Positions 2,843 through 53,119 of a stretch of 64,000 nucleotides of DNA are shown piece after piece. The stretch is from Opitutaceae bacterium (lineage in GTDB: Bacteria; Verrucomicrobiota; Verrucomicrobiia; Opitutales; Opitutaceae). A program made the translations under genes and the position numbers. The notes under the pieces are model-generated. The model saw nothing but the letters and a program-made list of their open reading frames with translations, was not told the DNA's origin and searched no databases. Positions within the stretch are counted from its first letter, which is position 1; every line of letters begins with the position of its first letter. The stretch is taken from assembly GCA_016715765.1 (NCBI GenBank), contig JADJZJ010000009.1, forward strand, positions 30,484 through 94,483, read 5' to 3'.

Positions 2843-2989
2843 GGTATTACGGGGGTTGGAGGTGGTGATGTTGCCCGTCCCCCGGGCCGCGGGCAAGGAC
2901 AGGACCAACATGCGCCCTTGAATCCGCCGAAAGAATGACTCTCTTAAGGTCTGCCAATCCACCGCCCGCCACCGGGCAACGACCACTTC

Positions 2990-29998: not shown

Positions 29999-31892
29999 TT
30001 ACTTCTTTTCCTGGGGAACTTCCGCCGCGGAAATGAAGGGATCCGAGCCATCGCGATAGCCGGGAAGCTCGTCACGACGCAACTGCAACTGCCGCACGCG
30101 GCGGGAATCGAAGACTTCCTCGATCGGGGCGCCCTCGGCATTCACCGTCTTGGCCGTGATGAAGATGATCAGATTGCGCATCTGGTCGTTCTTGGCATCC
30201 GAGCGGAAGAGCCGGCCCAGAATCGGAATGGATCCAAGGACGGGCACCCGGGTCTGGGTGTTCTGAATGGTGTTCTCGATCAGGCCGCCGATACCCATGG
30301 TGTAGCCGTCCTTCAGCGAAACCTGCGTCTTGGTCTTGCGCGTGGTGACGATCGGGATGTTGGCCGTGCCGAAATTGGCATTCTCGCTCGAGCTGCTGAC
30401 TTCGGGCTCGAGGATCAGCTTGATGAAGCCGCGGGAATTCACCTGCGGGGTCACCTTGAGGATGATGCCGATGGGGCGGTAGTCGAAGCCACTGACCTCA
30501 TACGTGCCGCGCTCCGCATTGTAGGTGTACCTCGGGATGGGGAATTCCTTGCCGATGTTGATCTGCGCCTCGGAGTTGTTGAGGGTGACCACGGTCGGGT
30601 TGGAAACGAGCTTGGTATCGTTGGTGGTCTTCAGGGCGGAGAGGATCACGCTGAAATCCGAGGCGGAGAACACCGCCGAGGCCATGCGATTGGTGCTCGA
30701 GGTATTGGTTAGCCCGGCAAGTTGATACAACATTGTTGGTCACCATTCGAGGCGGTGGTTTGACAAATTGTTCGCCAGCTGCTGTTGGTAGAGCGGAATT
30801 GGTCCACCCGTGCTCCCGTGGTTCCCGTGGTGACCGAAGTCTGGCTGACGGGAGGGAACTGCTGGGTGTTACCTGGTGGAACTGATCGGCACAACCTGGA
30901 TAAGTCGTGGTGACCATCCTGAGGGCATCTGTGGTCGGAAAAGGTTGAGCTAAATTACCGGTATTGGTCTGCGTGGTCGAAGTAGCGACCCCGAGTCGGT
31001 GGTGGTCACGCCTTGTTGTTCCATTGCTCGTTGATGCTGGACGTGCCATTTGCGACCGGTTGGTGCTGGAATTGCTGCTCCAACATACTGGATGTGTTGC
31101 TCCTTGGCAGTCGCTGCCGTCGGTCCTCGTCTGGCCGCGGGAGCGATCAAAGGTCTGGCTGAGCCCGCCGGCCGTCAGTTGCATGCCATTGAGCGAAGCC
31201 CAGTTGATGCCGATGTTCTTGATGTCGGCATTGGTGACTTCGACGAACTTCGACTCGATCATCACCTGGTCCGTGGCCTTGTCGAGGGACTCGATGATGG
31301 GACGGATGCGGTTCATCTGCGAAGGCCGCTCGGTGATCACGAGGGCATTGCTGCGTCCATCCACCACGAGCTTGCCGCCCTTGCTGGCATCAACCAGCGA
31401 GTCCAGCGTCGGCTTGATGTCGGCGGCGCGGGCATAATTGAGGATGAAGACCTCGGTGGTCGCGGGTTCCTGCAGGAGGCTCTCGTTGCTGACGACCTTG
31501 ATGATGTTGCCTTCCACGATGTAGGTGAAGTTGACGGGCGAGAGCACCACCTGGAAAATCTGCCGCCAGGAAACATCGCGGAGCTTGATCGAGGTGCGGC
31601 CCTGGAGGGTTTCGGGCACCACCAGGTTGAGCTCGAAGAGGTCGGCCACGTTGCGGAGGATGTTGCGGATGTCCTCGTCGGGGAAGTCCACCGACAGGGT
31701 ATCGGCGCCGGAGGCATCCTTGCCCTTGGTCGCCGAGCCGGCGGCATCAGCGGCATCATCCTTGATGACGACATCGGAGGCCGGCTGGACGGTCGTCGCG
31801 GCCTGCTCGGTCGGATCGGTCTGGCTCCAGGCGCTGGGAGCCAGCAGGAGGGCGACCAGCAGAGCGGACGGGGTGTAGGAATGTGTTCTCAT
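29999..31892 (-). pseudogene. pilQ: type IV pilus/T2SS-family secretin (PilQ-like), frame-disrupted in its central linker as assembled
   Basis: The N-terminal ORF (31892->30498) has a signal peptide and N-domains (…FILNYARAADIKPTLDSLV…NALVITERPSQMNRIRPIIESLD…VMIESKFVEV). The C-terminal ORF (30733->29999), in another frame, carries the secretin core (LVSNPTVVTLNNSEAQINIGKEFPIP…VPVLGSIPILGRLFR). In the C-terminal frame a TGA lies 6 nt upstream of the ATG at 30733. Confidence 0.8.
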
Positions 31893-32416
31893 GATTTCTT
31901 TCCTGGTTTGATGGGCCGGGTAATTTCCTCGCGATTGAGGCGGAGGGTAAAGGTGGTGCGGGTGATGGCGGTGATATCCAGGTTATAGTCGGCACCCTCG
32001 TAGGTGACGGTCAGCCGGTCGCCGATCTTGAGGCGGCGCGAACCAAAGAGGAGGATGGGCTCGCCGCCAATGATTGCGGTGCCCGAGGGCGAGAGCTTGT
32101 CAGCCAATGTTGCCAGCACGCCGCGATCGCCCAAGGGACGCACCGGGGTTCCGGCCGCCGCCGCCGCCGCCGCCGCCGCCTGCTGGGCCTTGACTTCCTC
32201 GGGATCAGGCTGATCGAAACCGGTCGGATTGAACGGGACGACCAAGGTGGCCGGCATTTCCGCCAGGACGCGGGGACTCACGAGCTGGTCCGCCAGCTCC
32301 ACGACTGCCGCCCGCTTTTGCGTCGACACCAGGTCGGATTGCTGGGCAACCAGTGCCGTCTCACCCGCGAGGATGAGGGCCGCCGCCATGCAGAGGGTCG
32401 GGATGGGGATTCTCAT
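31889..32416 (-). CDS. PilP-like pilus assembly protein
   Basis: 175 aa with a signal/lipoprotein-like N-terminus. It lies between the pilO-like gene and pilQ, with ATGA overlaps on both sides. The C-terminal beta-rich segment reads ILLFGSRRLKIGDRLTVTYEGADYNLDITAI. The call rests on position and architecture. Confidence 0.55.
   Translation of the reverse strand: MRIPIPTLCMAAALILAGETALVAQQSDLVSTQKRAAVVELADQLVSPRVLAEMPATLVVPFNPTGFDQPDPEEVKAQQAAAAAAAAAGTPVRPLGDRGVLATLADKLSPSGTAIIGGEPILLFGSRRLKIGDRLTVTYEGADYNLDITAITRTTFTLRLNREEITRPIKPGKKS
32154..32180. repeat. (GCC)9 trinucleotide microsatellite inside the PilP-like gene (encodes Ala9)
   Basis: A perfect 27-nt GCC run, read on the minus strand as the GCG codons of …QQAAAAAAAAAGTP…. 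Confidence 0.9.
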
Positions 32417-32988
32417 GGCACTCCGAGCAGTTCAAGGTTGAGGGTGATCTTGGAGGCGTCCGAACGCAGCCCGCCGACACCGGCTCCCTGATCAAAAGGC
32501 ACCACATTGGCCGATTTCACGCGACAGTAGTGCGAGCCGCTTTCCAAACGGCGGAGGAAATCGAAGAGCAGGGGGTAATCCCCCTGGACAGTCAGGGTGA
32601 AACCCACCGGGATTTTCCCCGTCTTGGCGGCCCGGCCAGGTTCGGTGGTCTGGCGCAAGTCGAGGAACTTGACCCCGGTCTCGGCTTCGAGCTTGTAAAA
32701 GTACTGCAGGTTATCGGCCAGCTGGCCGACCCGCACCAGCCGGCTGTTCGCTTCCTTGCTCGCCGCGGTGACCCGCGCGAGCTGTTCGGGCAATTGCGCG
32801 GAATTCTTGATGTTGGCGGACAGCCGCTTGCCTTCCGCGGTCTTTTCCTCGAGCTGCTGGCTGGCATCGGTGATCGCGCCGCTGCGATAATAAAGCGCAC
32901 CGGCCATGGCCAGGCAGAGGATGACCGCCACCGTGACCACGGGGTTCTTCTTGAAAAGCGCGACGACCTGTTCGTTCGAAATGGCCAT
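32413..32988 (-). CDS. pilO: PilO-like pilus assembly protein
   Basis: 191 aa: a single N-terminal TM (VVTVAVILCLAMAGALY), a coiled coil, then a ferredoxin-like C-terminus (…FTLTVQGDYPLLFDFLRRLESG…). It occupies the pilO position in the pilMNOPQ order. Confidence 0.65.
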   Translation of the reverse strand: MAISNEQVVALFKKNPVVTVAVILCLAMAGALYYRSGAITDASQQLEEKTAEGKRLSANIKNSAQLPEQLARVTAASKEANSRLVRVGQLADNLQYFYKLEAETGVKFLDLRQTTEPGRAAKTGKIPVGFTLTVQGDYPLLFDFLRRLESGSHYCRVKSANVVPFDQGAGVGGLRSDASKITLNLELLGVP

Positions 32989-32992
32989 GGGA

Positions 32993-33616
32993 TTACTTTT
33001 TCGCCGCTCCCTTCAGCTTGAGTTCGATTTCAATCGCCAGCCGGCCGGTAATGGGGATGCGGTTCAGGTTTTTCAGCACCACATCATCAATCTTGAGCAC
33101 CAGCACCGGATCGACCCGCAGTTGCTCCACATAGGTGGAGGCGTAGCCGCTCGCCATATCGGGAGCCCCGCGCACCGTGCCGCGCAGGATCAGGATGTTT
33201 TCCCGCAAATCAAAATAATCCAGGGCCACGTTCGCGGGCAGGGTCTGGCCGATGCGCAGCAGCAGGTCCGAGACGATCGGACGGGACTTGATGAAGGCGT
33301 CCACCTCGTTCAACTGCGCCTCCTCGGCCTTGAACTTGGTGAACAGGCTCACCGCCTTGTCGCTCGCCGGCTTGTCGCGGACTATCTGGGCCTCCACCTC
33401 CTCGATCTGCGAGTTGACGGCATGGAGATTCAATTCCCGGTTGCCCGTGTAGACCAGCAGCACCAGGGCCACCGCTATGGCGCCGCCGTTGACGAAGAAG
33501 GTCGTGCGCACGACCTTGGTATCCGGCAACCGCTCGAAATTGCGGAAGTTCGGATGCCAGGCCGGTGTCAGGTTGGCCGCGGCGGCGTCAGGCTTTTTTT
33601 TCAGCAGCGACAGCAT
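32993..33616 (-). CDS. pilN: PilN-like pilus assembly protein
   Basis: 207 aa: a short cytoplasmic N-terminus, a TM (GGAIAVALVLLVYTG), a coiled coil, and then …LILRGTVRG…. It overlaps the 3' end of pilM. Confidence 0.65.
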   Translation of the reverse strand: MLSLLKKKPDAAAANLTPAWHPNFRNFERLPDTKVVRTTFFVNGGAIAVALVLLVYTGNRELNLHAVNSQIEEVEAQIVRDKPASDKAVSLFTKFKAEEAQLNEVDAFIKSRPIVSDLLLRIGQTLPANVALDYFDLRENILILRGTVRGAPDMASGYASTYVEQLRVDPVLVLKIDDVVLKNLNRIPITGRLAIEIELKLKGAAKK

Positions 33617-34652
33617 TGGCAGCGGGGTTGGCGGTTTCGTGACGAACCATCAGGGAAAGCAGTCCGAACCAGCGCTGGTCGAGCACCGGCTTGGCCGCTT
33701 CGGAAACGGTGATGCCGTGGGACTCGAGCCACGGGGCGACATCCAGCTTGAGCGGGCTGATGCCCAGCTCCTTGGCAATGGTGACATCCAGCCAGCCCAG
33801 CTTGGCCGGGATGATGGAAGATATCAGCAGGCCCACGGACTGGCCGGTCTGAACCTCGTAAAAACCGATCGAGGACTGCAATTCCTTCAGCAGTTTCTTG
33901 ATGAGCAGCGGTCCCATGCCGGTGAAATCGAAGGTATTCGAATAGAAAAGCTTCCGGGCCGATTCCTCATCCTTCAATCCGAGTTCCTTCTGCACGACCG
34001 GGATCATGGATTCGAGCCCCTGCGGGATGGGCCGGGTGGCCTCCACGCCCACGCTGCTGACAATGAAGGAATTGGTCGATTCCGCACCGACTTCCAGCAC
34101 CAGGGTCGGGGTCTTGGATTTGATGAAATTCAGGTAGTTGACCAGGCCGCCCAAGGTCGAGATGGTGCCCAGTTCAAGTCGCTCCGGGTAAATGCCATTG
34201 GCCAGCAGGGCGTCCTGCGAGGAAATGATTTCCTCCGAGAGCATGCCGGCGAACAACGCTTCCTTCTGGGAGGCACCCTTGCTGACATCATAATCGGTGC
34301 CATCGGGGGCGTTCAGCACCATCGTGACGGCCTTGTCCGGTTCGACGCGGAACTGCTGGGTGAGAATTTCGCCGAAATAGGCCGGCTCCTTGAGCCGTTT
34401 CGGATCGAGCGTGATGCGGCGCAGGAACCGGCGTGAGGTGTAAACCCCGCAACTGGCGTGCACGTAACCGCTGGAAGACTTCTTGGGTTGCAGCTGTTTG
34501 AGCGCTTCCGCCAGGGCCGCCCCGTCGCCCGGAGTGCACTCCCGCACTTCCTCAATCACCAACGACCCGGTCGCAGCCGAGGTACGGGCCAGCATGAGCG
34601 CATGGTCGGTTTGTTCGACGAAATACCCTTTCGGCTTTGCTGAAAAGAGCAT
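33588..34652 (-). CDS. pilM: PilM-like actin-fold pilus assembly ATPase-like protein
   Basis: From ATG 34652 (MLFSAKPKGYFVEQTDHALMLAR…), 354 aa with an actin/HSP70-like fold pattern (…LVLEVGAESTNSFIVS…). It is the first gene of the pilMNOPQ-order operon. Confidence 0.75.
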   Translation of the reverse strand: MLFSAKPKGYFVEQTDHALMLARTSAATGSLVIEEVRECTPGDGAALAEALKQLQPKKSSSGYVHASCGVYTSRRFLRRITLDPKRLKEPAYFGEILTQQFRVEPDKAVTMVLNAPDGTDYDVSKGASQKEALFAGMLSEEIISSQDALLANGIYPERLELGTISTLGGLVNYLNFIKSKTPTLVLEVGAESTNSFIVSSVGVEATRPIPQGLESMIPVVQKELGLKDEESARKLFYSNTFDFTGMGPLLIKKLLKELQSSIGFYEVQTGQSVGLLISSIIPAKLGWLDVTIAKELGISPLKLDVAPWLESHGITVSEAAKPVLDQRWFGLLSLMVRHETANPAANAVAAEKKA

Positions 34653-34856
34653 GCTTCGGTGGGCGCGGTTTGCGGTTGGTTGTGGTGGTAGTCTGCCCGA
34701 TTTGCAACGGTGGCAGTCCCGAGGCAAAACGGCTGAGGGGCGTTAAGGACTTTTCTTAATGCAGTAGCTTGGCTGCTATGACAAGATAAAATCCGCCATT
34801 AACCCCTAGACTGCCGCCATTTACCTTTTCTTGATTTTGCCACCCGGGATGGACCA

Positions 34857-41438: not shown

Positions 41439-41563
41439 GGTCGGATAAGGATTGGAAGCCGGTCAAAGACTCAAACGCCCGCTGGAGAGTCAACGGTATT
41501 TTCATTCTTCCGCTTTCTGCTTTGCCCGGCGGCCCTTCCGTCCACATTGCTGGTGCAGCCCTG

Positions 41564-43150
41564 ATGAATCTCCGGACCCGCTTCAACCTGCTGCTGGTGT
41601 TACTGTGCCTGGGCCTCGCGGCGAGCCTCCTGGCGCTCAGGTTTCACGAAAAGCGCGAAACCCGGCTGATCCTCCACGAGATCCGTGAACAGCGCAGTCA
41701 AATGCTGGACCGACTGATCGAGTTGAGCGGCCGCTCGCTCCGGACGTTTACGCGGGAATATTCGCTGTGGACGGAAATGGCCGATTTTGTGGCCAAGCCG
41801 GCGGTGGACAAGGCCTGGACCCACATTAACATCGACAGCAGTCTCGCCACGTTCCAGGCCGAGGCCGCCTGGGTTTTCAAGCCCGACGGCCGGTTGTTTT
41901 ACGCCGCCGTGCTGGCGAATGAACCGCCGGTGCCAATCACCCTGCTCCCGCCCCCCGACCAACTCGCGGAGCGGCTGAACCGGGACAAGGTCTGCCATTT
42001 TTTCATCAAGGCCGGCTCCGAGCTCTACGAAATCCGGGGATCGGTCATCGTGCCGTCGGAAGACATGAACCGGTCCACCCCGCCCCGCGGGTTTTTCCTG
42101 ACGGCCCGCCACTGGGGGGCGCAGCATCTGGCAGGCCTGGCCGAACTCAGCCAGGCCACGATCGAGTTGGCTGACAGCGCCGAAAGCCGCACCCCGGCGG
42201 TGGAGCAGAACTCGATTCATCTCTTCCGTCATCTGCCCGACTGGGAGGGAAAAACCATCAGCGGGCTGCACCTGCGCTACGACTCCGCGGAACTCAGCCA
42301 GGTCAGTGAAACGGACGTCTGGGAATCCGTGATTTTCTTCGCCTTCGGTTCCCTCTCCATCCTCCTCGTGGTTTATTTCGCCTACCGCTGGGTCCTGCGT
42401 CCCGTCGGCGGGATCAGTGAAAGCCTGGCCACCGGCAACCTCGCCCCGCTCGAGCCCTACTACGACGAGCGTTCCGAACTCGGCCGCGTCGCTAACCTCG
42501 TGCGGTCCTCGTTTCATGACCGCGAGAAACTGCGCGACACCATGCAGGAGCGGGCCCAGCTGAGCCGGGACCTGCACGACGGCCTCATCCAGGCCCTTTA
42601 TGCGATCGGCATGAACCTCGCTAGCATCGGCCCCCTGCTGCGGCGCAAGCCGGAACAGGCGGAAACCCAGCTGGACCAGGCCCGCACCGAACTCAATGCC
42701 TCCATCCGTGAACTGCGCAGTTTCATCACCAGGCTGGAGCCGGCCGACGCCGAGAAAAAGGATTTTGGCAAGGCCGTGCAGCTGCTCGTGAAATTCATGC
42801 AGACGGCGCACCCCACGACCTTCAAGCTGGAGATGGACGATGGACTGGCCTCCGGCCTGGCCGTCGAACGCAGCACCCAGCTGCTGTACATCGTGCGCGA
42901 AGCCCTGAGCAACGCCCTGCGCCACGGCCGGGGCGACACGGTCACCCTCCGGCTGCAACCCGCGGGGGATCTGGCGGTGTTCAGTGTGCATGACAACGGC
43001 CGGGGATTCGATCCCGCCGCCCCCCGCCAGGGCGGACACGGCCTTGACAACATGACCGAACGCGCCCTCCAACTTGGCGGCACATTGCAGATCAGTTCAT
43101 TGCCAGGCCAAGGCACACTCGTCACCGTCCGCTTTCCCCATTCCCTATGA
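41564..43150 (+). CDS. sensor histidine kinase (HisKA_3/NarX-type) with ~230-aa periplasmic domain (HK1)
   Basis: From ATG 41564. TM1 is FNLLLVLLCLGLAASLLAL and TM2 is VIFFAFGSLSILLVVYFAY, followed by a HAMP-like linker. The H-box is RDLHDGLIQALYAIGM and the ATPase region is NALRHG…DNGRGFD…GHGLDNMTERA. Its stop overlaps the RR start (ATGA). Confidence 0.85.
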   Translation: MNLRTRFNLLLVLLCLGLAASLLALRFHEKRETRLILHEIREQRSQMLDRLIELSGRSLRTFTREYSLWTEMADFVAKPAVDKAWTHINIDSSLATFQAEAAWVFKPDGRLFYAAVLANEPPVPITLLPPPDQLAERLNRDKVCHFFIKAGSELYEIRGSVIVPSEDMNRSTPPRGFFLTARHWGAQHLAGLAELSQATIELADSAESRTPAVEQNSIHLFRHLPDWEGKTISGLHLRYDSAELSQVSETDVWESVIFFAFGSLSILLVVYFAYRWVLRPVGGISESLATGNLAPLEPYYDERSELGRVANLVRSSFHDREKLRDTMQERAQLSRDLHDGLIQALYAIGMNLASIGPLLRRKPEQAETQLDQARTELNASIRELRSFITRLEPADAEKKDFGKAVQLLVKFMQTAHPTTFKLEMDDGLASGLAVERSTQLLYIVREALSNALRHGRGDTVTLRLQPAGDLAVFSVHDNGRGFDPAAPRQGGHGLDNMTERALQLGGTLQISSLPGQGTLVTVRFPHSL

Positions 43151-43962
43151 AATCCATGACTTCAACCATCCGGGTCCTGCTGGTCGATGACAGCGCTCTC
43201 GTCCGCCGCGGCGTGAGATCGGTCATCGAGGCGCACAGCGAGCAAGGCGCCATCGAGGTGGTGGGCGAGGCCGCGAGCGCTGCCGCCGCGATGACTGAAG
43301 TCCTGCGTCTCCGGCCCGATGTGGTGCTGCTCGACCTGCGCCTGCCCGACGATTCCGGCATCAATGTCTGCCGCCGCATCCACACTGAACTACCCGCCAC
43401 CCGCGTGCTCGTGCTGACCTCATTCGTGGACGACAACCTGGTCTACAACGCCGTCATCGCTGGGGCCCACGGCTATCTCATGAAGGAAGTGGACCCGCCC
43501 ACCCTGCTCGAAGCAATTGCCAAGGCGGCTTCCGGCCAGTCCATTCTCGCTCCCGACATCACGGAACGCGTGATGAAGATGCTGCGGTCCGGCAATACCG
43601 GCAAGGAAGGCAGCAACGACCTCTCCACCCTGTCCAACCAGGAACGACGGGTTCTCGCTTGCGTGGCCGAGGGCCTCACCAACAAACAGACCGGCGAACG
43701 CCTCAATCTCAGCGAGAACACGGTGAAAAACTACCTGATCAACGTGTTTGAAAAACTGCAGGTCAAACGCCGCTCCCAAGCCGCCGCGCTCTATGTCGAA
43801 CAGGTCGGCCGGCCCGTGGCTTCCGACCTGCCCCGGGCAAGTAAGGTCCGGCTCGGCGGCCCGATTTGTACCGGACCGGAATGCGAGCTGATGCCAGCGA
43901 CTGGCGTTTTGGTTCCGGCAGGCAGCGCGGGTGATCCCGGGATCACCCTAGCCTACAAATAG
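43147..43962 (+). CDS. NarL/FixJ-family response regulator (REC + LuxR HTH) with ~50-aa C-terminal tail (RR1)
   Basis: IRVLLVDDSALVRRG…VVLLDLRLPDDSG…, then LSNQERRVLACVAEGLTNKQTGERLNLSENTVKNYLINVFEKLQVKRR. The tail GRPVASDLPRASK… parallels the RR2-to-prepilin junction. Confidence 0.85.
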   Translation: MKSMTSTIRVLLVDDSALVRRGVRSVIEAHSEQGAIEVVGEAASAAAAMTEVLRLRPDVVLLDLRLPDDSGINVCRRIHTELPATRVLVLTSFVDDNLVYNAVIAGAHGYLMKEVDPPTLLEAIAKAASGQSILAPDITERVMKMLRSGNTGKEGSNDLSTLSNQERRVLACVAEGLTNKQTGERLNLSENTVKNYLINVFEKLQVKRRSQAAALYVEQVGRPVASDLPRASKVRLGGPICTGPECELMPATGVLVPAGSAGDPGITLAYK

Positions 43963-44129: not shown

Positions 44130-45742
44130 ATGAGCGTAAAACTGAAATTCGCGTCGCTGTTGGGACTGTCCTTGATGGTCTTTGTCTCGGCCATGTGGGC
44201 GCTGCAGTGGCTGGACCGGCGCGAAACCGCCCGTAATGCCACCCTGTTGCATCGCTCACGTGAGCAACAGCTGGACCACTGGCTCACCGCCACCGGTGTT
44301 TCGCTGCGCAATTTCACCGATGAAGGGCCCAGGTCGCCGCGGCCCGCGTGCGCACCGATCCCACGCAATTCACCCTGCCGGAAAACACCGAGGGCATAGC
44401 CGCGGCAAACGTCACCGGTTACTGGGTGGTGCGAAGCAGCGGCACGGTCGTGCAGGTTGAGGCCGCGCATGGCCTGGGGCATCCCCCCGTATCCGCCGCC
44501 AGCATCGCATTATGGACGGCCAATCCCCCGACCCACCGCTTCTTCAGCGAAAGCGAGGCCGGGCTGCTGGAAATTTGCGTGGAGCCGATCACTCCGCAGG
44601 AAGGCCGTTCCCCCTGGGGCTGGTTTCTCGTCGCTCGGCGATGGGATGAAAACCACCTGAAGGTGCTGACCAATCTCACCGAGGGCCGCGTCACCCTGGA
44701 CCTGCATCCCGCCGCCACCCTGACATCGGCCACCGTGCACACGCGTCTGCTGCCGGACTGGCAGGGACGTCCGCTGCGCAGTCTGCAGGTCAGCTATCCG
44801 CCGGGGATTGAAGCTGTCCCGCCCTGGCCCGGCCTGCCCGGCCTCGCGGTGTTCTTCGGCTTCGGCCTCCTGCTGCTCTCCGGCCTGGCCCTGAGCCTGC
44901 ACCGCTGGGTCCTGCGTCCCCTGGATCTCATCGGCGCCAGTCTCGCCCTGGACAGCGCCGCCCCGCTCGCGCCGCTGCTGGCCGGACAGGATGAATTCGC
45001 CGGCACCGCCCGCCGGCTCGAGGCCTCGTTCACCCAGCGCGACGCCCTCAAAAGGGAGATCGAGGAACGCCGGAGCATCGCCACCGCCCTGCTGGCGGCG
45101 GAAAACGACCTGCGCCGCACCATGGACGAGCGCACCCGCCTCGGCCGCGACCTGCACGACGGCGTGATCCAGGCGCTCTATGCGACGGGCATGGGCCTCG
45201 CCGGCATCCGCGCCCTGCTCCCCCCCGGGCAGAATGAAGCCTCCGAACGGCTCAACCAATGCCGGGCGACGCTCAATGAGATCATCCGCGACGTGCGCAA
45301 CTTCATCACCGGGATCGAGCCCGAGGCGCTCCGGCAGCAGAGCTTCACGCAGGCGGTGCAGGCGCTGCTCGAATTCATGCAAAGCATCAGCCCGAGTTCG
45401 ACCCAGGCCGAGATTGACGAACACCTGGCCGGCCAGCTGACCCTGAACCAGCGGGCCAATGCGCTGCACATCATGCGCGAGGCCGTGAGCAATGCCCTGC
45501 GCCACGGCGCCGCCGAGCACATCCAGGTCTCGTTCACCCGCACGCCCGAGGGCGACGCCGCCCTCGACATCAGCGACGACGGCCTGGGCTTCACCCCGGG
45601 AGCCGACACCACCAACCGGGGCCGCGGCCTGGAAAATCTCGCCCAGCGCGCCGCCGACCTCGGCGCCATTTTCACCCTGCGATCGGAACCGGGCCAGGGC
45701 GCCCGCCTGCGTTTCGTCTTCACCCTGCCGCCAAAGTCATGA
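44130..45742 (+). pseudogene. sensor histidine kinase paralog (HK2), frame-disrupted near 44322-44333 as assembled
   Basis: Frame 0 from ATG 44130 encodes MSVKLKFASLLGLSLMVFVSAMWALQWLDRRETARNATLL…SLRNFTDE, parallel to the HK1 N-terminus. The rest lies in the frame of 44348 (…YWVVRSSGTVVQV…, TM2, RDLHDGVIQALYATGM, NALRHG…DDGLGF…GRGLENLAQRA). The switch falls at GAAGGGCCCAGG. Confidence 0.75.
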
Positions 45743-46854
45743 AATCCATTCCCACCCAAGGCATCCGCATCCTGCTGGTCGAGGACAGCATCCTGGTCCG
45801 CGAAGGCATCCGGATCGTGCTCGAGTCCGCCGATCCGCCGGACCTGCACGTCGTCGGTGAAGCCGGCTCCAATGCCGAGGCCATTGCCGCCTGCGACCGG
45901 CTGAAACCCGCCGTCGTGCTGCTCGACATCCGGCTCCCCGACGGCAACGGCTTCACGGCCTGCCGCGAAATCCTCCTGCGCCAGCCCGACACCCGGGTCA
46001 TCATCCTCACCTCGCATTCGAGCGACACGTTCGTCTATGAGGCGGTCAATGCCGGCGCGCACGGCTACCTCATGAAGGAAGTGGATCCCGCCGGCCTCGT
46101 GCAGGCCGTTCGCGATGTCGCCGCCGGCCAGTCCATCCTCGCCCCCGACGTCACCGACCGGGTGCTCAAGATGCTGCGCGGCAACGGCGCCGGCCGCAGC
46201 GCGGAGGGCGATCTCGCCAGCCTCTCCCATCAGGAGCGGCGCGTCCTGGCCTGCGTGGCCGAGGGCCTCACCAACAAGCAGGCGGGCGAACGCCTCGGCC
46301 TGAGTGACAACACGGTGAAAAACTACCTGATCAACGTTTTCGAAAAGCTGCAGGTCAAACGCCGCGCGCAGGCCGCCGCCCTTTATGTGTCGCAGGCCGG
46401 GCGGCCCAATGCCGGGGCGATGTCGCTGCCGGATGCCACCAAGTCGGGTTTCACCCTGGTCGAGGTCATGTTCGCCGCCATCGTCCTGGCCCTCGGCATC
46501 GTCACCGCCATCCTCACGCTCCAGCGCGGCCTGCAGGCCATCGACACGGCGCGGAACTACACCTACGCGGGCCAGCTCATGCAGAGCGAGATGGAGAATC
46601 TGCGGCTGAAAAACTGGGACCAGCTCGAGACGCTGCAGCAGGCCGGCCCCGTCCTGGTCACGGCCGATCCCACGGCCACTTCCACCCGCACCACCTTCGA
46701 CTGCACCCGCACCATCAGGACCGTGAAAACCGACATGAAGGAAATCCTCCTCGTCTCGAGCTGGCGCGGCTACGACGGCCGCGCCCACACGGCCCGCGTC
46801 GTCACCCGCTACGGCAAGAGCGGCCTCTATGACTATTTCTACACCGCCCACTGA
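45739..46854 (+). CDS. NarL/FixJ-family response regulator (RR2) whose ORF continues in frame, with no stop, into a prepilin-type protein
   Basis: REC (IRILLVEDSILVREG…VVLLDIRLPDGNG) and LuxR HTH (LSHQERRVLACVAEGLTNKQAGERLGLSDNTVKNYLINVFEKLQVKRR) are followed by AGRPNAGAMSLPDATKSG|FTLVEVMFAAIVLALGIVTAIL… up to the stop at 46854. Confidence 0.7.
   Translation: MKSIPTQGIRILLVEDSILVREGIRIVLESADPPDLHVVGEAGSNAEAIAACDRLKPAVVLLDIRLPDGNGFTACREILLRQPDTRVIILTSHSSDTFVYEAVNAGAHGYLMKEVDPAGLVQAVRDVAAGQSILAPDVTDRVLKMLRGNGAGRSAEGDLASLSHQERRVLACVAEGLTNKQAGERLGLSDNTVKNYLINVFEKLQVKRRAQAAALYVSQAGRPNAGAMSLPDATKSGFTLVEVMFAAIVLALGIVTAILTLQRGLQAIDTARNYTYAGQLMQSEMENLRLKNWDQLETLQQAGPVLVTADPTATSTRTTFDCTRTIRTVKTDMKEILLVSSWRGYDGRAHTARVVTRYGKSGLYDYFYTAH
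46420..46854 (+). CDS. GspI/PilV-like minor pseudopilin (module A, protein A1); possible independent translation from an internal in-frame ATG
   Basis: The leader is MSLPDATKSG, followed by FTLVEVM (Glu at +5) and a hydrophobic helix. It is a paralog of 48970-49434, sharing SEME.LR..W and the C-terminal GLYDY.YT. Confidence 0.6.
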   Translation: MSLPDATKSGFTLVEVMFAAIVLALGIVTAILTLQRGLQAIDTARNYTYAGQLMQSEMENLRLKNWDQLETLQQAGPVLVTADPTATSTRTTFDCTRTIRTVKTDMKEILLVSSWRGYDGRAHTARVVTRYGKSGLYDYFYTAH

Positions 46855-47437
46855 TGCCGTGACGGGTCACCGTCGCCCCCACGCCTTCACCCTCGCCGAG
46901 GTGATGGTCGCCGCCTCGCTGGCGACCCTCGTGCTGGCCGGGGTGATGAGCGCGTTTCTCTTCATCGGCCGCACCAGCTTCAGCACCGGCAACTACAGCG
47001 AGATGGAGGCCCAGACCCGCCGGGCCCTCGACCGCTTTGCCGGCGATGTGCGCATGGCCACCGGCATCCGGTGGAACAGCAGCCAGAGCCTCACCCTCAC
47101 CCTCCCCACCGCCTCCAACGCGACCACCCAGGTCACCTACGCGTACGATCCGCTCTCCGTCGGGGCCACGGCCCGCACGTTCTACCGTGTCGTCGGCGAC
47201 GCCGCCTCCCCGCTGCCCCGCGAGGCCCTGGTGCGCGGGGTGGCCACGGATTTTTCCTTCCAGCGCTTCAAGCTCGAGCAGAACGGCGTCATCGCGAATG
47301 CCGCCGCCAACGATCTGGAGACCAAACTGCTCCAGGTCTCACTCCGTCCCGTCCGGACGGGTGTCACCACGGTCGCCAGCAGCCAGCGCACCCTTTCCGC
47401 CCGTTATCTGCTGCGCAACAAGCGCGTCAGCCAATGA
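46829..47437 (+). CDS. GspJ/PilW-like minor pseudopilin (A2)
   Basis: …RRPHA|FTLAEVMVAASLATLVLAGVMSAFLFIGR…; a paralog of 49427-49963. An alternative GTG start at 46859 gives a 9-aa leader like that of B2. Confidence 0.7.
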   Translation: MTISTPPTDAVTGHRRPHAFTLAEVMVAASLATLVLAGVMSAFLFIGRTSFSTGNYSEMEAQTRRALDRFAGDVRMATGIRWNSSQSLTLTLPTASNATTQVTYAYDPLSVGATARTFYRVVGDAASPLPREALVRGVATDFSFQRFKLEQNGVIANAAANDLETKLLQVSLRPVRTGVTTVASSQRTLSARYLLRNKRVSQ

Positions 47438-48858
47438 TGTCCCGCTCCAAGCATTCACCGCGGCCTGGTCCGCACCTGCTCCCGGCGCCCACCCGGCACG
47501 GGTCGATGCAACCTGCGCGGGGCTCCGTCCTCATTGTCGCCCTGCTGCTCTCCGCCATCATCGCCCTGATGCTGGGCAGCTACCTGAATCTCAACCTGAG
47601 TTCCACCCGGCTTGCCAAGCGCTCCTTCCACAGCACCGCCGCCCTCAACCTCGTCGAGGCGGGCGCGGAGGAGGCGGTCTGGTCCTTCAACCGCGTCACG
47701 GCGGGCCACAACGATGGCTGGACGGATTGGAACACCGACGGCACCTCGGCCTGGAAAAAACTGTCCGGCTTCGACTTCGGGGCCAACACCTCCGGGTGGA
47801 CCAAGGTCTACGTCACCAGCACCAATCCCCCCGCCCGCACCAACCCCAAGGTCGTCGCCCTGGCCTCGGTCAATCCGCCCGACGGTCCGCCCGTCACCCG
47901 CATGATCGAGGTCGTCCTCCGCCGCCGCTCCTATTTCTCCAACGGCCTCGTCGCGAAGGACCGGATCGTCTTCAGCGGCGCCAATGCGAGCGTGGACAGC
48001 TGGAACTCGGATCCGGACGGGGATCCCGCCACTCCGCCGGTGGACTACAGCGCCGAGGTCCGCCGCGACCAGGGGAGCGTGGCCAGCATGAATGTGGCGA
48101 ACACCGCCATGCTCGTGAACCAGGCGGACATCTGGGGCTATGTCTACACCGGCGGCTCCCAGCCGCAGGTCGGCAGCAACGGCAGTATCCGCGGTGCGGA
48201 CACGCCGGAGGACGTGCGGATTGACGCGAACCGCATCACCACGGACTTCAACGCCGCGCTGCCCGCCGTGGCCGCCCCGGCGGACGGCATCACGATCGCG
48301 AACATCGGTTCCACCCTGGGCACCGCCGGCCTGGCGACCCGCTGGCGCTGTGCGGCGATCAACCTGAGCGGCAACCAGACGCTCACCATCCGGGGCGATG
48401 TGACCCTCATCCTCACCGCCACCTCCGGCATGAATGCGATCAGTGTCACCGGCAATGCCGGCATCATTGTCCCCGCCGGCTCCACCTTCACCGTCTACAC
48501 CGAGGGCAACGTCCGGATCGCCGGCAACGGCATCGGCAACGCCAACATCCAGCCCCGGACCCTGCAATTCTGGGGCACCCACCCCACGGCCGGCGGCCAG
48601 GAAATGCAAATCGCCGGCAACGGGGCGCTGCGCACCGTCGTCTATGCCCCCAATGCCTCCGTGACCATCAACGGCAACGGGAACGTGCTGGGCTCCGTGG
48701 TCGCCAACGACATCACCCTCGTGGGCAACGCGGCGTTTCACTATGACGAGTCGCTCGCCAATTCCGGAGAGGACACGCCCTACGGCATCACCAAGTGGCG
48801 CGAACTCAGCACCGCCGAGAGCCGCGCCGCCTACGCCGAGGTCTTCGCGGGCTGGTGA
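47434..48858 (+). CDS. GspK/PilX-like large pilin-like protein with C-terminal Gly/Asn-rich beta-solenoid-like repeats (A3)
   Basis: From ATGATG at 47434, overlapping the A2 stop. The N-terminus is …ARGSVLIVALLLSAIIALMLGSYL, with no Glu+5. The C-terminus is …IAGNGALRTVVYAPNASVTINGNGNVLGSVVANDITLVGNAAFHYDESL…WRELS…AGW. It is a paralog of B3 and B4. Confidence 0.75.
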   Translation: MMSRSKHSPRPGPHLLPAPTRHGSMQPARGSVLIVALLLSAIIALMLGSYLNLNLSSTRLAKRSFHSTAALNLVEAGAEEAVWSFNRVTAGHNDGWTDWNTDGTSAWKKLSGFDFGANTSGWTKVYVTSTNPPARTNPKVVALASVNPPDGPPVTRMIEVVLRRRSYFSNGLVAKDRIVFSGANASVDSWNSDPDGDPATPPVDYSAEVRRDQGSVASMNVANTAMLVNQADIWGYVYTGGSQPQVGSNGSIRGADTPEDVRIDANRITTDFNAALPAVAAPADGITIANIGSTLGTAGLATRWRCAAINLSGNQTLTIRGDVTLILTATSGMNAISVTGNAGIIVPAGSTFTVYTEGNVRIAGNGIGNANIQPRTLQFWGTHPTAGGQEMQIAGNGALRTVVYAPNASVTINGNGNVLGSVVANDITLVGNAAFHYDESLANSGEDTPYGITKWRELSTAESRAAYAEVFAGW

Positions 48859-48969: not shown

Positions 48970-49434
48970 ATGCCCAATCCATTTCGCACCCGCCGGCGCC
49001 GCGAGGGCGGCTTCACGATCGTCGAGGTCGCCATGGCCAGCTTCATCATGGCCTTCGGCATCGCCACCTCGATCATCGCGATGCAGTCCGGCTACAAGCA
49101 CATCGATCTCGCCCGCGGCACCACGCTCGCGTCCCAAATCATCCAGAGCGAGATGGAGCGCCTGCGCATGATGAGCTGGACGATGATCAATGCGCTGCCG
49201 GCCAACGAGACCTTTGACGGCGCCACGTTCTTCAGCGAGCACGCCAACATCGAGGACATTTACACCATCACCCGCACGGTCACGGACGACAGCACCCGCC
49301 CGGGCGAGATCAAGAACATCAACATCTCCGTCCGCTGGCGCACCTACGATCAGCGCTGGCATCAACGCTCCTTCAACGCGATCTACGCAAAAAACGGCCT
49401 TTATGACTATTACTACACTGTTGCCCATGAGTAA
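48970..49434 (+). CDS. GspI/PilV-like minor pseudopilin (B1)
   Basis: MPNPFRTRRRREGG|FTIVEVAMASFIMAFGIATSIIAM…QSEMERLRMMSW…GLYDYYYTVAHE. Confidence 0.8.
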   Translation: MPNPFRTRRRREGGFTIVEVAMASFIMAFGIATSIIAMQSGYKHIDLARGTTLASQIIQSEMERLRMMSWTMINALPANETFDGATFFSEHANIEDIYTITRTVTDDSTRPGEIKNINISVRWRTYDQRWHQRSFNAIYAKNGLYDYYYTVAHE

Positions 49435-49963
49435 GCCCGCCCGCCGCCGGGGCTTCACCCTGGTGGAGGTCATGATCGGGGCGGCGCTCTCGACCTTCAT
49501 CCTGGCCGGGGTCCTCTCGACCTTCCTCTTCCTCGGGCGCAGCGGCGCCAACATGCAGAATTACTCCGACATGGAGACCCAGGCCCGCCGGGGGCTGGAA
49601 ATTTTCGCGGAAGACGTGCGCCAGGCCAGCGCCATCACCTGGAACAGCGCCGAGTCAGCCACGATTGTGGTGAACTCCGCCAGCGTCACCTACGCCTACG
49701 ACAGCAGCACGCGCATCTTTTCCCGCAATGGAGCTAATCTCATCACGGGGGTGACCCCGGGCAGCTTCGCCTTCTCGGCCTTCAATGTCGCCGGGACGGA
49801 GATGCCGCTGTCCACCGCGGCGGAGCGTTCCGCCGCCAGTTCCAGCACGAAGCAGCTCCAGATCACCCTCGAGGCCACGCGCACGAACACGACCGTCGTC
49901 GCCGCGACGAATACCGTGCTCTCCGCCCGCTTCATCCTTCGCAACAAGATCGTCACCGCCTGA
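49427..49963 (+). CDS. GspJ/PilW-like minor pseudopilin (B2)
   Basis: MSKPARRRG|FTLVEVMIGAALSTFILAGVLSTFLFLGR…. It overlaps B1 by 8 nt. Confidence 0.8.
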   Translation: MSKPARRRGFTLVEVMIGAALSTFILAGVLSTFLFLGRSGANMQNYSDMETQARRGLEIFAEDVRQASAITWNSAESATIVVNSASVTYAYDSSTRIFSRNGANLITGVTPGSFAFSAFNVAGTEMPLSTAAERSAASSSTKQLQITLEATRTNTTVVAATNTVLSARFILRNKIVTA

Positions 49964-49974
49964 GCGGCGCTCCC

Positions 49975-51456
49975 ATGAAGACCAACCCTTCGTTCCGTCC
50001 CCTCCCTGCGACCCGCAGTCTGCGCCTGGCACAGACGAGGGGTTCCGTGCTCATCGTCTCGATGATCCTGTGCGCCGTCATCGGCATCTCGCTCGCAAGC
50101 TACCTGCAGCTCGGTCGCACCGGCCTGTTCATCTCCAACCGGGCCCTCTACAGCAACGCCGCCATGAACCTTGCCGAGAACGGGCTCGAGGAGGCGATGT
50201 ATGCCATCAACAAAACGGTGGCCGACAGCGGCTACAATTGGGCGGACAACGGCTGGACCACATCAAGCCCCGTGCCCACCGGCGATGCCCGGCGGGTGTT
50301 GCCCGCGTCCGGCACCTACAACTTCGACCAGGGTGTCACCGGCACCGTGCGCGTCTACGTGGTCGGCTATTCCGGCACCGCTCCCCGCGCCCTGGCCCGT
50401 TCCACCGTCAACCTCGGCTCAGGCCGGACCATTGAAAAGTGGGTCGAGGTCCGGATGCGCAAAACCTCCCGGTTCGCCAACGGCCTGGTGGCCAAGGATT
50501 CCATCCGCTTTGCCGGCAACAACGCCTCGGTGGACAGCTGGCACTCCAAGAAAAACGACGACGGCACCCCGCGGGCCTCGCCCGTGCCCTACAGTTCCGC
50601 CGTGGATCATGACAAGGGCTCGGTCGGCTCCATCTCCGTTTCCGTGGACGCCGTTCTCGTCCAGAACGCCGACATCTGGGGCTATGCCGCCACCGGCGGC
50701 GCGATCCCGGCCGTGGGCAGCAACGGCCTGGTCGGACCCTATGGCACGACGAGCGGACAAATGGACATGTCCCGCGTCTCCACGGACTTCTCCGCCAGCT
50801 TCGATCCGGTTTCGCCGCCCACGACCGCGGGTTACACCGACATCGCCAACATCACGGCCAACACGATCCTGCCGCGGGCAACTGATGCTCCTGCTTCGGA
50901 TGGAAAATATTATTATACCACGGGCCAGATCAGCTTTAACAACAAGTACCTTACGATTCAGAAAAAGACCGTCGGGTCACCCGCCGTGCAGGTCGTGATC
51001 ACCCTGACCAACACCACCACCTCGATCAGCATCGGCGGTGGTTCCGGTGCCGTCAATATCGAGTCGGGCTCCCAGCTCGAACTTTATGCCCCGGGCAACA
51101 TCTCCATCGCCGGCAACGGCGTCATGAACGGGGGCACCACCGCCGCCACCGCCAATCTGCCGGAGGCTTTTCAAATCTGGGGCACCAAGACCTCCGGCGT
51201 GCAGGACATCTCCATCGCCGGCAACGGCGTCCTCAGCGGCGTCGTTTACGTTCCGCAGGGTTCGGTCAAGATCAACGGCAACGGCGACGTGTGCGGCTCG
51301 GTCGTGGCCAATGACATCACCGTGGTCGGCAATGCCCTGTTCCATTACGACGAATCCCTGGGCGACTTCGGCGGCAACAATCCCTACCGCGTCTCCCTCT
51401 GGCGCGAGATCACCTCGGCCGCCGGCCGCAGCGCCGTCACCGTCCTGAATTGGTAA
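49975..51456 (+). CDS. GspK/PilX-like large pilin-like protein with Gly/Asn-rich repeats (B3)
   Basis: …QTRGSVLIVSMILCAVIGISLASYL…, …IAGNGVLSGVVYVPQGSVKINGNGDVCGSVVANDITVVGNALFHYDESLGD…WREITS…TVLNW. Confidence 0.8.
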   Translation: MKTNPSFRPLPATRSLRLAQTRGSVLIVSMILCAVIGISLASYLQLGRTGLFISNRALYSNAAMNLAENGLEEAMYAINKTVADSGYNWADNGWTTSSPVPTGDARRVLPASGTYNFDQGVTGTVRVYVVGYSGTAPRALARSTVNLGSGRTIEKWVEVRMRKTSRFANGLVAKDSIRFAGNNASVDSWHSKKNDDGTPRASPVPYSSAVDHDKGSVGSISVSVDAVLVQNADIWGYAATGGAIPAVGSNGLVGPYGTTSGQMDMSRVSTDFSASFDPVSPPTTAGYTDIANITANTILPRATDAPASDGKYYYTTGQISFNNKYLTIQKKTVGSPAVQVVITLTNTTTSISIGGGSGAVNIESGSQLELYAPGNISIAGNGVMNGGTTAATANLPEAFQIWGTKTSGVQDISIAGNGVLSGVVYVPQGSVKINGNGDVCGSVVANDITVVGNALFHYDESLGDFGGNNPYRVSLWREITSAAGRSAVTVLNW

Positions 51457-51616
51457 GGGCGGCAGAACCACCACCGGCACGGAAGTCCGACGATGATTGG
51501 ACGGGCCGTCGGCACTCATCCTCAAATCCCCGGCTGCCCGCCGCCAGCATTCGCTTCCCGCCACAAATAATCATTCCGCTCGTGTCTGTAAAAGTCCTCC
51601 CCCCGGGACCGAACGC

Positions 51617-53119
51617 ATGCATCGCCGATTTCCCATGATCAGGAGGCCTTCGCCAGTTCCCGTCGCTCCCGTCCGATTCGCGCCCCTCCCCGCCGCCTCG
51701 AAGGGCTCCGTCCTGATCGTCGCGATGGTCCTTTCCGCGGTCATCAGCGTCTCGCTGGTCAGCTATCTGCAGATGAGCCGGACGAGCCTGCAGATTTCCA
51801 ACAGCGCCTTCTACCATAATGCGGCCATGAATCTGGCCGAGAACGGCCTGGAGGAAGCCCTGTACGCCATCAACAAGACCGTGGCCGACAGCAGCTACGA
51901 CTGGGCGGCCAACGGCTGGGACACCGCGAGCCCGGTACCCGCCGGAGATGCCCGGCGCCGGCTGCCTTCGGCCAGCACCACCTACCAGTTCGACCAGAAC
52001 GTCACCGGCTTCGTGCGCGTTTATGTGCTGGGCTACAACAGCGCCGCCCCCCGGGCCGTCGCCCGTTCCACCATCACGCTCAGCACCGGCCATATCATCC
52101 AGAAATGGGTCGAGATCCGGCTGCGCAAGGCCTCCAGGTTTGCCACCGGGCTGGTCGCCCGGGAATCCATCAGTTTTTCCGGCAACAACGCCTCGGTGGA
52201 CAGCTGGCACTCGAGGAAAAACGACGACGGCACGCCGCGGGCCACTCCGGTCGCCTACAGTTCCGCCGTCGATCATGACCGGGGCTCCGTGGGCTCGCTT
52301 TCCGTCGGCGTGAATGCCGTCCTCGTCCAGAATGCCGACATCTGGGGCTATGTCGCCACCGGCGGCACCATGCCTTCCGTCGGCAGCAACGGACTCGTCG
52401 GGCCTTATGGCACGGCCAGCGGTGAAATGGACCTGGGCCGCATCTCCACGGATTTCACCGCGAATTTCGAGCCGGTGGCGCCGCCCGCCAACGGCGGCGA
52501 CAACATCGGCGACATCACGACCAACCTCAATCTGCCCCGGGCCGCCGATGCCCTCGCGACAGATGGGAAATACTACTACACCGTCGGCCAGATCAATTTT
52601 AACAACAAGACGCTCGCCATTGCGAAAAAGACCGCCGCCTCGCCCCCCGTGCACGTCGTCATCACCCTCACCAATCCGGCCACGAGCATCAATATCGGCG
52701 GCGGCAGCGGCGCGCTCAACATCGAGCGCGGCTCGCAGCTGGAGCTGTTCGCCCCCGGCGACATCAAAATCGCCGGCAACGGGGTGATGAACGGCGGCAG
52801 CACCTCCGCCGCGGCGAACCTGCCGGAGTACTTTCAAATCTGGGGCACCCGGACCACCGGGGTGCAGGACATCCAGATCGCGGGCAACGGCGTGCTCAGC
52901 GGTTTGGTCTACGCCCCCAATGGTTCGGTAAAAATCAACGGCAACGGCGATGTCAGCGGTTCCGTCGTGGCCAACGACATCACCGTGGTCGGCAATGCCG
53001 CCTTCCACTACGACGAGGCCCTGGGCGATTACGGCGGGAACAACCCCTTCCGCGTCGCGCTCTGGCGCGAGATCAGCTCGGCCGCGGACCGCAACGCCAT
53101 CACCGTGCTGGACTGGTGA
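51617..53119 (+). CDS. GspK/PilX-like large pilin-like protein, tandem paralog of B3 (B4)
   Basis: From ATG 51617 (MHRRFPMIRRPSP…SKGSVLIVAMVLSAVISVSLVSYL). It is collinear with B3 along the whole length, roughly three-quarters identical by eye. Confidence 0.8.
   Translation: MHRRFPMIRRPSPVPVAPVRFAPLPAASKGSVLIVAMVLSAVISVSLVSYLQMSRTSLQISNSAFYHNAAMNLAENGLEEALYAINKTVADSSYDWAANGWDTASPVPAGDARRRLPSASTTYQFDQNVTGFVRVYVLGYNSAAPRAVARSTITLSTGHIIQKWVEIRLRKASRFATGLVARESISFSGNNASVDSWHSRKNDDGTPRATPVAYSSAVDHDRGSVGSLSVGVNAVLVQNADIWGYVATGGTMPSVGSNGLVGPYGTASGEMDLGRISTDFTANFEPVAPPANGGDNIGDITTNLNLPRAADALATDGKYYYTVGQINFNNKTLAIAKKTAASPPVHVVITLTNPATSINIGGGSGALNIERGSQLELFAPGDIKIAGNGVMNGGSTSAAANLPEYFQIWGTRTTGVQDIQIAGNGVLSGLVYAPNGSVKINGNGDVSGSVVANDITVVGNAAFHYDEALGDYGGNNPFRVALWREISSAADRNAITVLDW

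Follow-up and report, generated by a model that had tools for sequence, protein, structure and literature searches.

The locus described here lies in a 64-kb stretch of DNA from an Opitutaceae bacterium (assembly GCA_016715765.1, contig JADJZJ010000009.1), hereafter called the window, and centers on one open reading frame (ORF) of 371 amino acids (aa) at 45739-46854 on the forward strand, in which a NarL/LuxR-type response regulator runs without a stop codon into a type IV prepilin-like protein. The ORF encodes, in this order, a REC receiver domain, a LuxR/GerE-type helix-turn-helix (HTH), a 20-aa disordered linker, the motif G237-F238-TLVE with a predicted cleavage site between G237 and F238, a hydrophobic helix of 24 aa and finally the pilin head; the stop codon is at 46852-46854. 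By comparison with its homologs, this is a genuine, ancient and selectively maintained fusion, in which a linker of 14-25 aa and the regulator before it occupy the class III leader position of a PilV/GspI-like minor pilin. The ORF and its parts are as follows:

45739-46854, forward: regulator-prepilin fusion (RR2::pilin), 371 aa, 100% identical to protein cluster P0001, with 36 more fused clusters at 63-81% identity
45769-46113, forward: REC receiver domain, residues 11-125 (PF00072, 86.9 bits versus a cutoff of 30.2; AlphaFold2 predicted local distance difference test (pLDDT) >90)
46219-46380, forward: DNA-binding LuxR/GerE-type HTH, residues 161-214 (PF00196, 59.6 bits versus a cutoff of 23.5)
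46390-46449, forward: junction linker, the former prepilin leader, residues 218-237, disordered and hypervariable, with a non-conserved ATG at 46420
46447-46452, forward: predicted prepilin peptidase site between G237 and F238, with conserved Gly/Ala at -1 and F at +1
46450-46521, forward: hydrophobic N-terminal segment of the first pilin helix (alpha1-N), FTLVEVMFAAIVLALGIVTAILTL, with an invariant Glu at +5 and a mean Kyte-Doolittle hydropathy of 2.4
46522-46851, forward: pilin head, comprising the remainder of alpha1, a short helix and a four-stranded antiparallel sheet, weakly PilV/GspI-like

The sequence-only reading of the window had placed the ends of the ORF, the end of the HTH tail (...RRAQAAALYVSQ) at 46395, the in-frame ATG at 46420 (M228), the Gly-Phe site at 46447-46452 and the stop codon, and all of these coordinates proved correct. 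Its proposal that the last 144 codons are paralogous to the stand-alone gene at 48970-49434 was likewise borne out (42% identity, E = 3e-30). The G+C content at third codon positions is 0.89, like that of a real gene, in a window of 65% G+C.

The best matches of the regulator half among the NCBIfam models were MadR and NarL, both under their equivalog cutoffs, which makes the regulator a family member rather than a named ortholog; by its domain matches it is a bona fide NarL/LuxR-family response regulator. A cognate kinase is adjacent: the HisKA_3 and HATPase_c kinase HK2 overlaps the start of the fusion ORF as ATGA. Within the pilin half, the context of the cleavage site (G237 followed by FTLVEVMFAAIVLALGIVTAILTL) matched the TIGR02532 model (IV_pilin_GFxxxE) with 18.1 bits versus a cutoff of 16.3 when the last 144 aa were searched, and the Pfam model N_methyl matched residues 235-257 with 19.4 bits, slightly below its cutoff of 21.2. 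The Gly/Ala at -1, the subsequent hydrophobic stretch and the Glu at +5 of a class III motif are all present. A short N-terminal hydrophilic leader is not: the motif starts at residue 235 of 371, after two folded domains and without a conserved start codon nearby. All sequence requirements of a prepilin were thus found, except that the ‘leader’ is a 237-aa regulator. Scores for PilV (TIGR02523, 35.4 versus 52.2) and GspI (TIGR01707, 22.7 versus 44.35) were both under the equivalog cutoffs, so that the pilin half can be called PilV/GspI-like only, and the Verru_Chthon cassette protein B model (TIGR02598) scored 20.7 bits versus a cutoff of 51.4.

A full-length AlphaFold2 model built on an alignment of 37 sequences had a pLDDT of 79.7, with the REC and HTH domains predicted confidently (HTH helices at 164-220) and residues 223-237 disordered (pLDDT <50). 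The pilin part was modeled as a 49-residue helix (240-288) followed by a four-stranded antiparallel sheet (pLDDT ~80-88), the lollipop fold of pilins. The predicted template modeling score of the full-length fusion was 0.43, which suggests low confidence in how the modules are placed relative to one another. A model of the pilin alone reached a pLDDT of 85.8. Searching the PDB with this pilin-only model in Foldseek yielded no match with E <0.1, and a profile HMM of the pilin yielded nothing meaningful among PDB sequences, so that structure gave no assignment to a minor-pilin subtype.

The distribution of the fusion was determined with a search using the full protein, with matches clustered at 90% and drawn from JGI, ENA, NCBI and Logan assemblies. 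In-frame fusions covering the whole query were present in 37 protein clusters (364-374 aa, 63-100% identity), followed further down by hundreds of stand-alone regulators of ~223 aa that were ~70% identical across the regulator part. The database annotation of the fused proteins is ‘response regulator’ only. Independently of fusion status, to which it was blind, a genome scan seeded solely with conserved pilin peptides recovered 41 loci in Opitutaceae/Opitutales; 14 of these, counted at the species level, carry the in-frame fusion (L001-L012, L016, and L039), and 16 others show the same regulator-then-pilin synteny but have a stop codon, with 35-184 nt from that stop to the -1 codon. In neighbor-joining trees of regulator plus pilin with midpoint rooting, the fused loci formed one clade with zero reversions, about as deep as its unfused sister group, and the synonymous divergence (dS) among its members was 0.3-1.7. 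Separate regulator and pilin genes are the ancestral state, and the trees point to a single origin of the fusion from adjacent or overlapping genes. The in-frame continuity that the sequence-only reading had proposed to look for in orthologous loci is therefore conserved in one clade (37 clusters and 14 genome loci). A stop codon or frame change in orthologs, which it had named as evidence against a fusion, occurs only outside this clade, where separate genes are ancestral, and not within it.

Searching with the pilin part alone gave a complementary picture. A word-indexed search listed stand-alone pilins only, at ≤70% identity, and did not list the fused proteins. An exhaustive phmmer search found 577 relatives among 1.84 billion representatives, with the fused clade collapsed into one 50% representative; no other N-terminal extension with a recognizable domain occurred among these 577 relatives. 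P0388, P0349, P0256, and P0341 are N-terminally extended pilin relatives that were not counted as fusions, as their extensions have no recognizable domain and possibly reflect over-called starts. In P0388 (293 aa, pilin domain at 154-292) the first ~90 residues of a 155-aa extension look like a real helical domain, with no Pfam match; this extension might be an N-terminal fusion of another kind, or else its start was over-called. Long low-complexity C-terminal tails follow the conserved GLYDYYY end in P0256 (393 aa; Gly/Asn/His-rich) and P0259 (538 aa; Asp/Arg/Lys-rich).

One further protein, P0040 (337 aa), was considered as an independent second fusion and rejected as an artefact or a decaying locus, since its contig L042 (JGI Ga0509788_03439) carries several frameshifts: the regulator tail ATLYVKASGGVPPT, ending in a stop codon, lies in another frame, the pilin itself is frameshifted and gyrB is split. 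The spurious fusion was made by a 1-nt shift. This case is a caution that indel errors easily mimic a regulator-pilin fusion.

Mean pairwise identity within the fused clade was 73% for REC, 82% for the HTH, 77% for the hydrophobic pilin helix and 72% for the pilin head. The ratio of nonsynonymous to synonymous substitution rates (dN/dS) was 0.01-0.3 over both halves (HTH 0.01-0.10, pilin head 0.10-0.30), so that both halves are, as judged by substitution patterns, under purifying selection and functional. Residues E15, D16, D63 (the phospho-acceptor), T91, and K113 of REC were invariant in 37/37 fused homologs, as were F at +1 and E at +5, and position -1 was Gly in 33/37 and Ala in 4/37. Fused proteins and free orthologs conserve the pilin head equally well, and in the regulator tree the fused copies group with unfused regulators without elongated branches. 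The linker is different. From the conserved ...LYV(Q) end of the HTH to the -1 Gly it measures 14-25 aa in the homologs and is hypervariable (19% mean pairwise identity, dN/dS ~0.3-1.2), which indicates almost neutral evolution. At least nine distinct linker lengths occurred among 15 genomes, which requires at least eight indel events, and every change was in frame and introduced no stop codon (P ~1.5e-4 for all changes being in frame under an unconstrained frame). As far as gene structure goes, this continuity across at least eight length changes, together with the purifying selection on both halves and the retention of G/A(-1), F(+1), and E(+5), strongly supports the first of the two possibilities that the sequence-only reading had left side by side, namely a true fusion.

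The fusion gene is embedded between two-component genes and minor-pilin cassettes, with a pilus assembly operon upstream:

29999-34727, reverse: pilMNOPQ-like type IV pilus assembly operon, ~11 kb upstream, with PilM-like and GspM/PilO-like genes and a PilQ secretin
41522-43150, forward: HK1, a CHASE4/HisKA_3/HATPase kinase, paralog of HK2 from the duplicated pair
43147-43962, forward: RR1, a free paralogous NarL-type regulator, 271 aa
44082-45742, forward: HK2, the cognate HisKA_3/HATPase sensor kinase, with the ATGA overlap onto the fusion ORF, in two frames (main ORF 44348-45742)
46829-47437, forward: second pilin-like gene of cassette 1, with an N_methyl motif (...RRPHA before FTLAEV)
47434-48858, forward: DUF7305 protein of cassette 1, with a hydrophobic pilin-like (PilX/ComGG-like) N-terminus and an ATGA overlap with the preceding stop codon
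48970-49434, forward: stand-alone paralog of the pilin module that opens cassette 2; its leader of 14 aa (MPNPFRTRRRREGG before F) is normal
49427-49963, forward: second pilin-like gene of cassette 2
49975-51456, forward: DUF7305 protein of cassette 2
51497-53119, forward: third DUF7305 protein, followed by gyrB/gyrA

Two genes of this neighborhood are split in the window. HK2 has a frame break at ~44327-44408, with an N-terminal transmembrane/sensor part that matches orthologs at ~44130-44327 and the remainder (44408-45736) in another frame; its orthologs in L004 and L009 are single intact ORFs. The PilQ-type secretin on the reverse strand is broken into two ORFs that overlap but differ in frame: 30498-31892 holds the N-terminal part and 29999-30733 the Secretin domain. 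The three DUF7305 proteins (47434-48858, 49975-51456, and 51497-53119) share hydrophobic pilin-like N-termini with weak matches to ComGG/tapirin N-termini, and DUF7305 proteins may be a PilX- or tip-adhesin-like component of the cassettes. Elsewhere in the window, the 951-aa ORF at 1304-4159 (reverse) has an aromatic amino acid lyase domain in residues 450-910 only; its 450-aa N-terminal part is without a Pfam match and the ORF is possibly over-extended in this high-GC sequence.

Unfused genomes have the gene order rpsT (reverse strand), kinase, regulator, pilin, pilin, DUF7305, pilin, pilin, DUF7305. In several of them the stop codon of the regulator runs into the start codon of the pilin (ATGA in L028, GTGA in L018 and L026), which implies translational coupling of the regulator and the first minor pilin even as separate genes; stop-start overlaps of either type are also listed for L027 and L029. 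The pilin leaders in these overlap-type relatives are unusually long (13-30 aa) and Arg/Pro-rich, several end in Ala rather than Gly, and motifs such as ..RPF.. are common to unfused leaders and fused linkers. The linker of the fusion is the former pilin leader, and one 1-nt indel in the overlap would weld both frames.

Every fused genome whose upstream sequence reaches 3 kb or more (12/12) has a second kinase-regulator pair in tandem, in the order HK1-RR1-HK2-RR2::pilin, and none of the unfused genomes does (0/16; Fisher p = 1e-7; the loci listed for this comparison were L003-L012, L016, L043, and L044 versus L013-L033, L045, and L046). Since the fusion and the duplication fall on one branch of the tree, this is a single co-occurrence and not independent statistical proof of linkage. 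The RR1 copies form a clade of their own with a topology mirroring that of RR2, which makes the duplication as old as the fusion. A CHASE4 sensor domain was clear in HK1 and weak or undetected in HK2. RR1 is 271 aa long in the window versus 221-229 aa in its orthologs. Its tail in the window (..LYVEQVGRPVASDLPRASK..) shows homology with the fused copy's linker that extends to two residues before the Gly-Phe site, and the distal regulators of L004 and L009 share a shorter version (..EQVGRPQSSALPPGP, ending at a stop codon). Gene conversion from the fused copy into RR1 is suggested for the subclade of the window, L004 and L009.

By definition, class III signal peptides are short leaders at the N-terminus. 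They are recognized via the signal recognition particle/Sec route and inserted with the leader in the cytoplasm, and prepilin peptidase cuts on the cytoplasmic face after Gly or Ala, with no other protein needed and with leaders of varying length (PMC10191384). Applied to the fusion, the alpha1-N segment would insert in the inner membrane with the regulator in the cytoplasm and the pilin head in the periplasm, and the peptidase would cleave after Gly237 on the cytoplasmic face. The products would be a soluble ~25-kDa regulator with a short C-terminal tail and a ~14.5-kDa mature minor pilin, probably N-methylated, which would join the minor-pilin/DUF7305 cassette encoded downstream. The minimal outcome would be that the regulator and the first minor pilin are obligatorily co-synthesized in a 1:1 ratio, the regulator arising at the membrane beside its kinase HK2; in addition, regulator activity might depend on membrane insertion and peptidase processing. 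The retention of Gly/Ala at -1 and Glu at +5 and the very short tether (14-25 aa) argue that the precursor is cut and does not persist as an intact ToxR-like protein. The topology is feasible, since fusions of the CyaA fragments T18/T25 to the N-termini of PilA, FimU, and PilVWXE are routine in two-hybrid assays (PMC5979040). On this basis we consider it fairly probable that the fusion is a polyprotein from which prepilin peptidase cuts free the regulator and generates the mature minor pilin; the membrane topology, the cleavage and any regulatory coupling of the precursor are inferred.

Several points weigh against the polyprotein. With ~237 aa, the leader would be about ten times the length of any other known to us, and the peptidase may not tolerate a folded domain beside its site. 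No A24 prepilin peptidase gene was found within the 64-kb window. Both HK2 and pilQ are frameshift-split there, through assembly indel errors or because the system is decaying in this genome; the fusion is unaffected by this because orthologs support it. Internal initiation at a GTG, giving a leader of 15-26 aa, could serve for 13/15 fused loci. Finally, the conserved frame shows selection for continued translation of the pilin, which does not prove a regulatory advantage.

A stronger version of the polyprotein, the core of which the sequence-only reading had proposed, would make the regulator peptidase-gated: tethered to the membrane until correctly inserted and cut at the Gly-Phe site, it would dimerize and bind DNA only thereafter, transcription of its regulon (probably the minor-pilin/DUF7305 cassettes) would mirror how much pilin is being inserted and processed, and HK1-RR1 would take over the ancestral soluble role. 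The domain order and hydrophobic helix of the fusion fit the predicted layout of a tethered factor, with a cytoplasmic DNA-binding domain, a single transmembrane segment and an extracytoplasmic domain. Prepilin peptidase is generally considered constitutive. We regard this version as rather unlikely; if true, it would constitute a new class of signal-peptidase-gated two-component signaling.

The null version of the polyprotein fits the data equally well. Here the fusion is real and cleaved but without regulatory significance: a 1-nt indel merged overlapping coupled genes, the peptidase rescued both products and the frame was kept only because the pilin lost its start. The ATGA/GTGA overlaps of unfused relatives make the fusion a one-indel step, the contig of P0040 shows a like fusion from a 1-nt shift, and both the single origin and the neutral evolution of the linker agree with an accident that became fixed. 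The co-occurring duplication of the kinase-regulator pair hints instead at a functional re-partitioning but, arising on the same single branch, lends no independent support. Such a history is a realistic possibility, to which we give a chance short of even.

If the precursor were not cleaved, it would act as an intact anchored response regulator resembling ToxR or CadC, with the pilin helix as its anchor and the periplasmic head as a sensor or a docking module for minor pilins. Its predicted topology equals that of ToxR/CadC-type proteins, in Pseudomonas aeruginosa the controlling two-component system receives feedback from the minor pilins (PMC5979040), and the free RR1 in every fused genome examined could provide the soluble regulator function. 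An anchor would nonetheless not account for the retention of Gly/Ala at -1, Phe at +1 and Glu at +5 in 37/37 homologs, residues relevant to cleavage, nor for a pilin head conserved to the same degree as in free orthologs. In the established view of pilins, Glu5 pairs with a neighboring processed subunit at its free N-terminus. Moreover, only 14-25 aa separate the last HTH helix from the membrane, whereas the tethers of ToxR and CadC measure ~50 aa or more. We therefore judge an uncleaved regulator to be improbable.

The second possibility left by the sequence-only reading was a nested gene, with the pilin translated from the internal ATG. More generally, the regulator would run on past a lost stop codon, translation of the pilin would begin separately at an internal start (the ATG at 46420 in the window, GTG or other codons elsewhere) and the full-length product would be an irrelevant by-product. 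In the window, the ATG ten codons before the site gives a textbook leader, MSLPDATKSG before F. This codon is, however, shared with L039 only and is CTG in L001, the nearest relative (96% identical pilin). Among the 34 fused homologs that could be parsed, the linker contains Met in two and no Met, Val or Leu in 18, so that most homologs are without a candidate start there. L016 has no ATG, GTG or TTG within 35 codons upstream of the cleavage site, and in L005 the nearest is no closer than -26, inside the HTH. A GTG at the conserved ‘YV’ codon lies 15-26 codons upstream of the site in 13/15 fused loci, L005 and L016 being the two without it, and is a candidate nested start; yet it is no commoner than in unfused regulators (11/13 versus 9/15, Fisher p = 0.22) and thus reflects codon usage rather than a conserved start. 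The absence of a Shine-Dalgarno sequence is uninformative, as the genuine starts of stand-alone pilins in relatives are likewise without one. Indels upstream of an internal start could shift the frame freely, yet all of the at least eight length changes were in frame and no stop codon was regained in the clade. A nested pilin is therefore disfavored and seems to us very unlikely. With no conserved start of its own, the pilin module would be makeable only within the 371-aa precursor, and the simplest reading is that it is translated only as part of that precursor, selection for pilin expression holding the frame open.

An artefact of sequencing or assembly or a recent pseudogene, with a stop codon lost or an indel peculiar to the window, might be suspected from the split HK2 and pilQ genes and from the truly artefactual fusion of P0040, but can be regarded as excluded, its chance being negligible, by the identical architecture that independent projects yielded in 37 clusters and 14 genomes and by dN/dS values of 0.01-0.3 on both halves.

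The fusion is a new combination of known parts and potentially a new mode of coupling pilus biogenesis to transcription, with a whole folded signaling protein holding the position of a class III leader stably across one bacterial clade. No account of a regulator-pilin fusion, or of a transcription factor released by prepilin peptidase, turned up in full-text literature searches. As gene callers label the fused proteins ‘response regulator’, current annotations do not show the cassette's first minor pilin. Should the precursor be cleaved, the substrate range of prepilin peptidases would be widened, and the fusion would be a natural polyprotein yielding one cytoplasmic and one envelope product. 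It would offer a ready system for the wiring of pilus biogenesis to transcription, so far approached via indirect feedback (FimS-AlgR, PilS-PilR), and would illustrate how overlapping coupled genes can be welded by a single-base change where the processing protease is already present.

Among known systems, the closest are the type IV prepilins and pseudopilins of type II secretion systems (IPR012902/TIGR02532; PilV/FimU/GspI), which have in common with the fusion the Gly/Ala at -1, Phe at +1, Glu at +5, the ~24-aa hydrophobic alpha1-N and the lollipop fold. The pilin of the fusion also heads a minor-pilin cassette and has free orthologs and a free paralog. Their leader, however, is a hydrophilic peptide of ~5-30 aa, whereas that of the fusion is a folded two-domain regulator plus linker of 237 aa; furthermore, the fusion is without a start codon near the cleavage site, scores below the cutoffs of the PilV and GspI models and has no detected relative of solved structure. 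Modular pilins such as PilB of Streptococcus sanguinis also join a pilin module to a functional non-pilin module, but theirs is C-terminal and displayed on the pilus, while that of the fusion is N-terminal and cytoplasmic and would be removed on processing (PMC8179133). The engineered T18/T25-pilin fusions are similar in that a pilin with a folded cytoplasmic domain joined to its N-terminus continues to act as a membrane protein; they are artificial and are used in hosts without the cognate peptidase, in contrast to the natural and long conserved regulator-pilin fusion (PMC5979040).

On the regulatory side, FimS-AlgR controls the fimU-pilVWXY1E minor-pilin operon of P. aeruginosa, and the minor pilins and PilY1 feed back on it (Marko et al., 2018, PMC5979040). 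Both cases have a two-component system encoded beside, and (putatively so for the fusion) functionally tied to, an operon for minor pilins and a tip protein, and cross-talk, likewise putative for the fusion, between membrane-resident minor pilins and the regulator. The link in P. aeruginosa is non-covalent and runs via the kinase, in contrast to the covalent joining of regulator and first minor pilin in the fusion, and AlgR is of the LytTR type, whereas the fused regulator is of the NarL/LuxR type. ToxR, CadC, TcpP, and tethered regulators released by proteolysis resemble the predicted precursor in having a cytoplasmic DNA-binding domain, a single transmembrane segment and a periplasmic domain, with proteolytic release being possible. 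Proteins of the ToxR/CadC/TcpP type differ in being one-component regulators without a REC domain or a class III site, while the tether of the fusion is very short; and where release occurs in tethered regulators it is carried out by site-1/site-2 proteases, rather than by the class III signal peptidase that would cleave the fusion.

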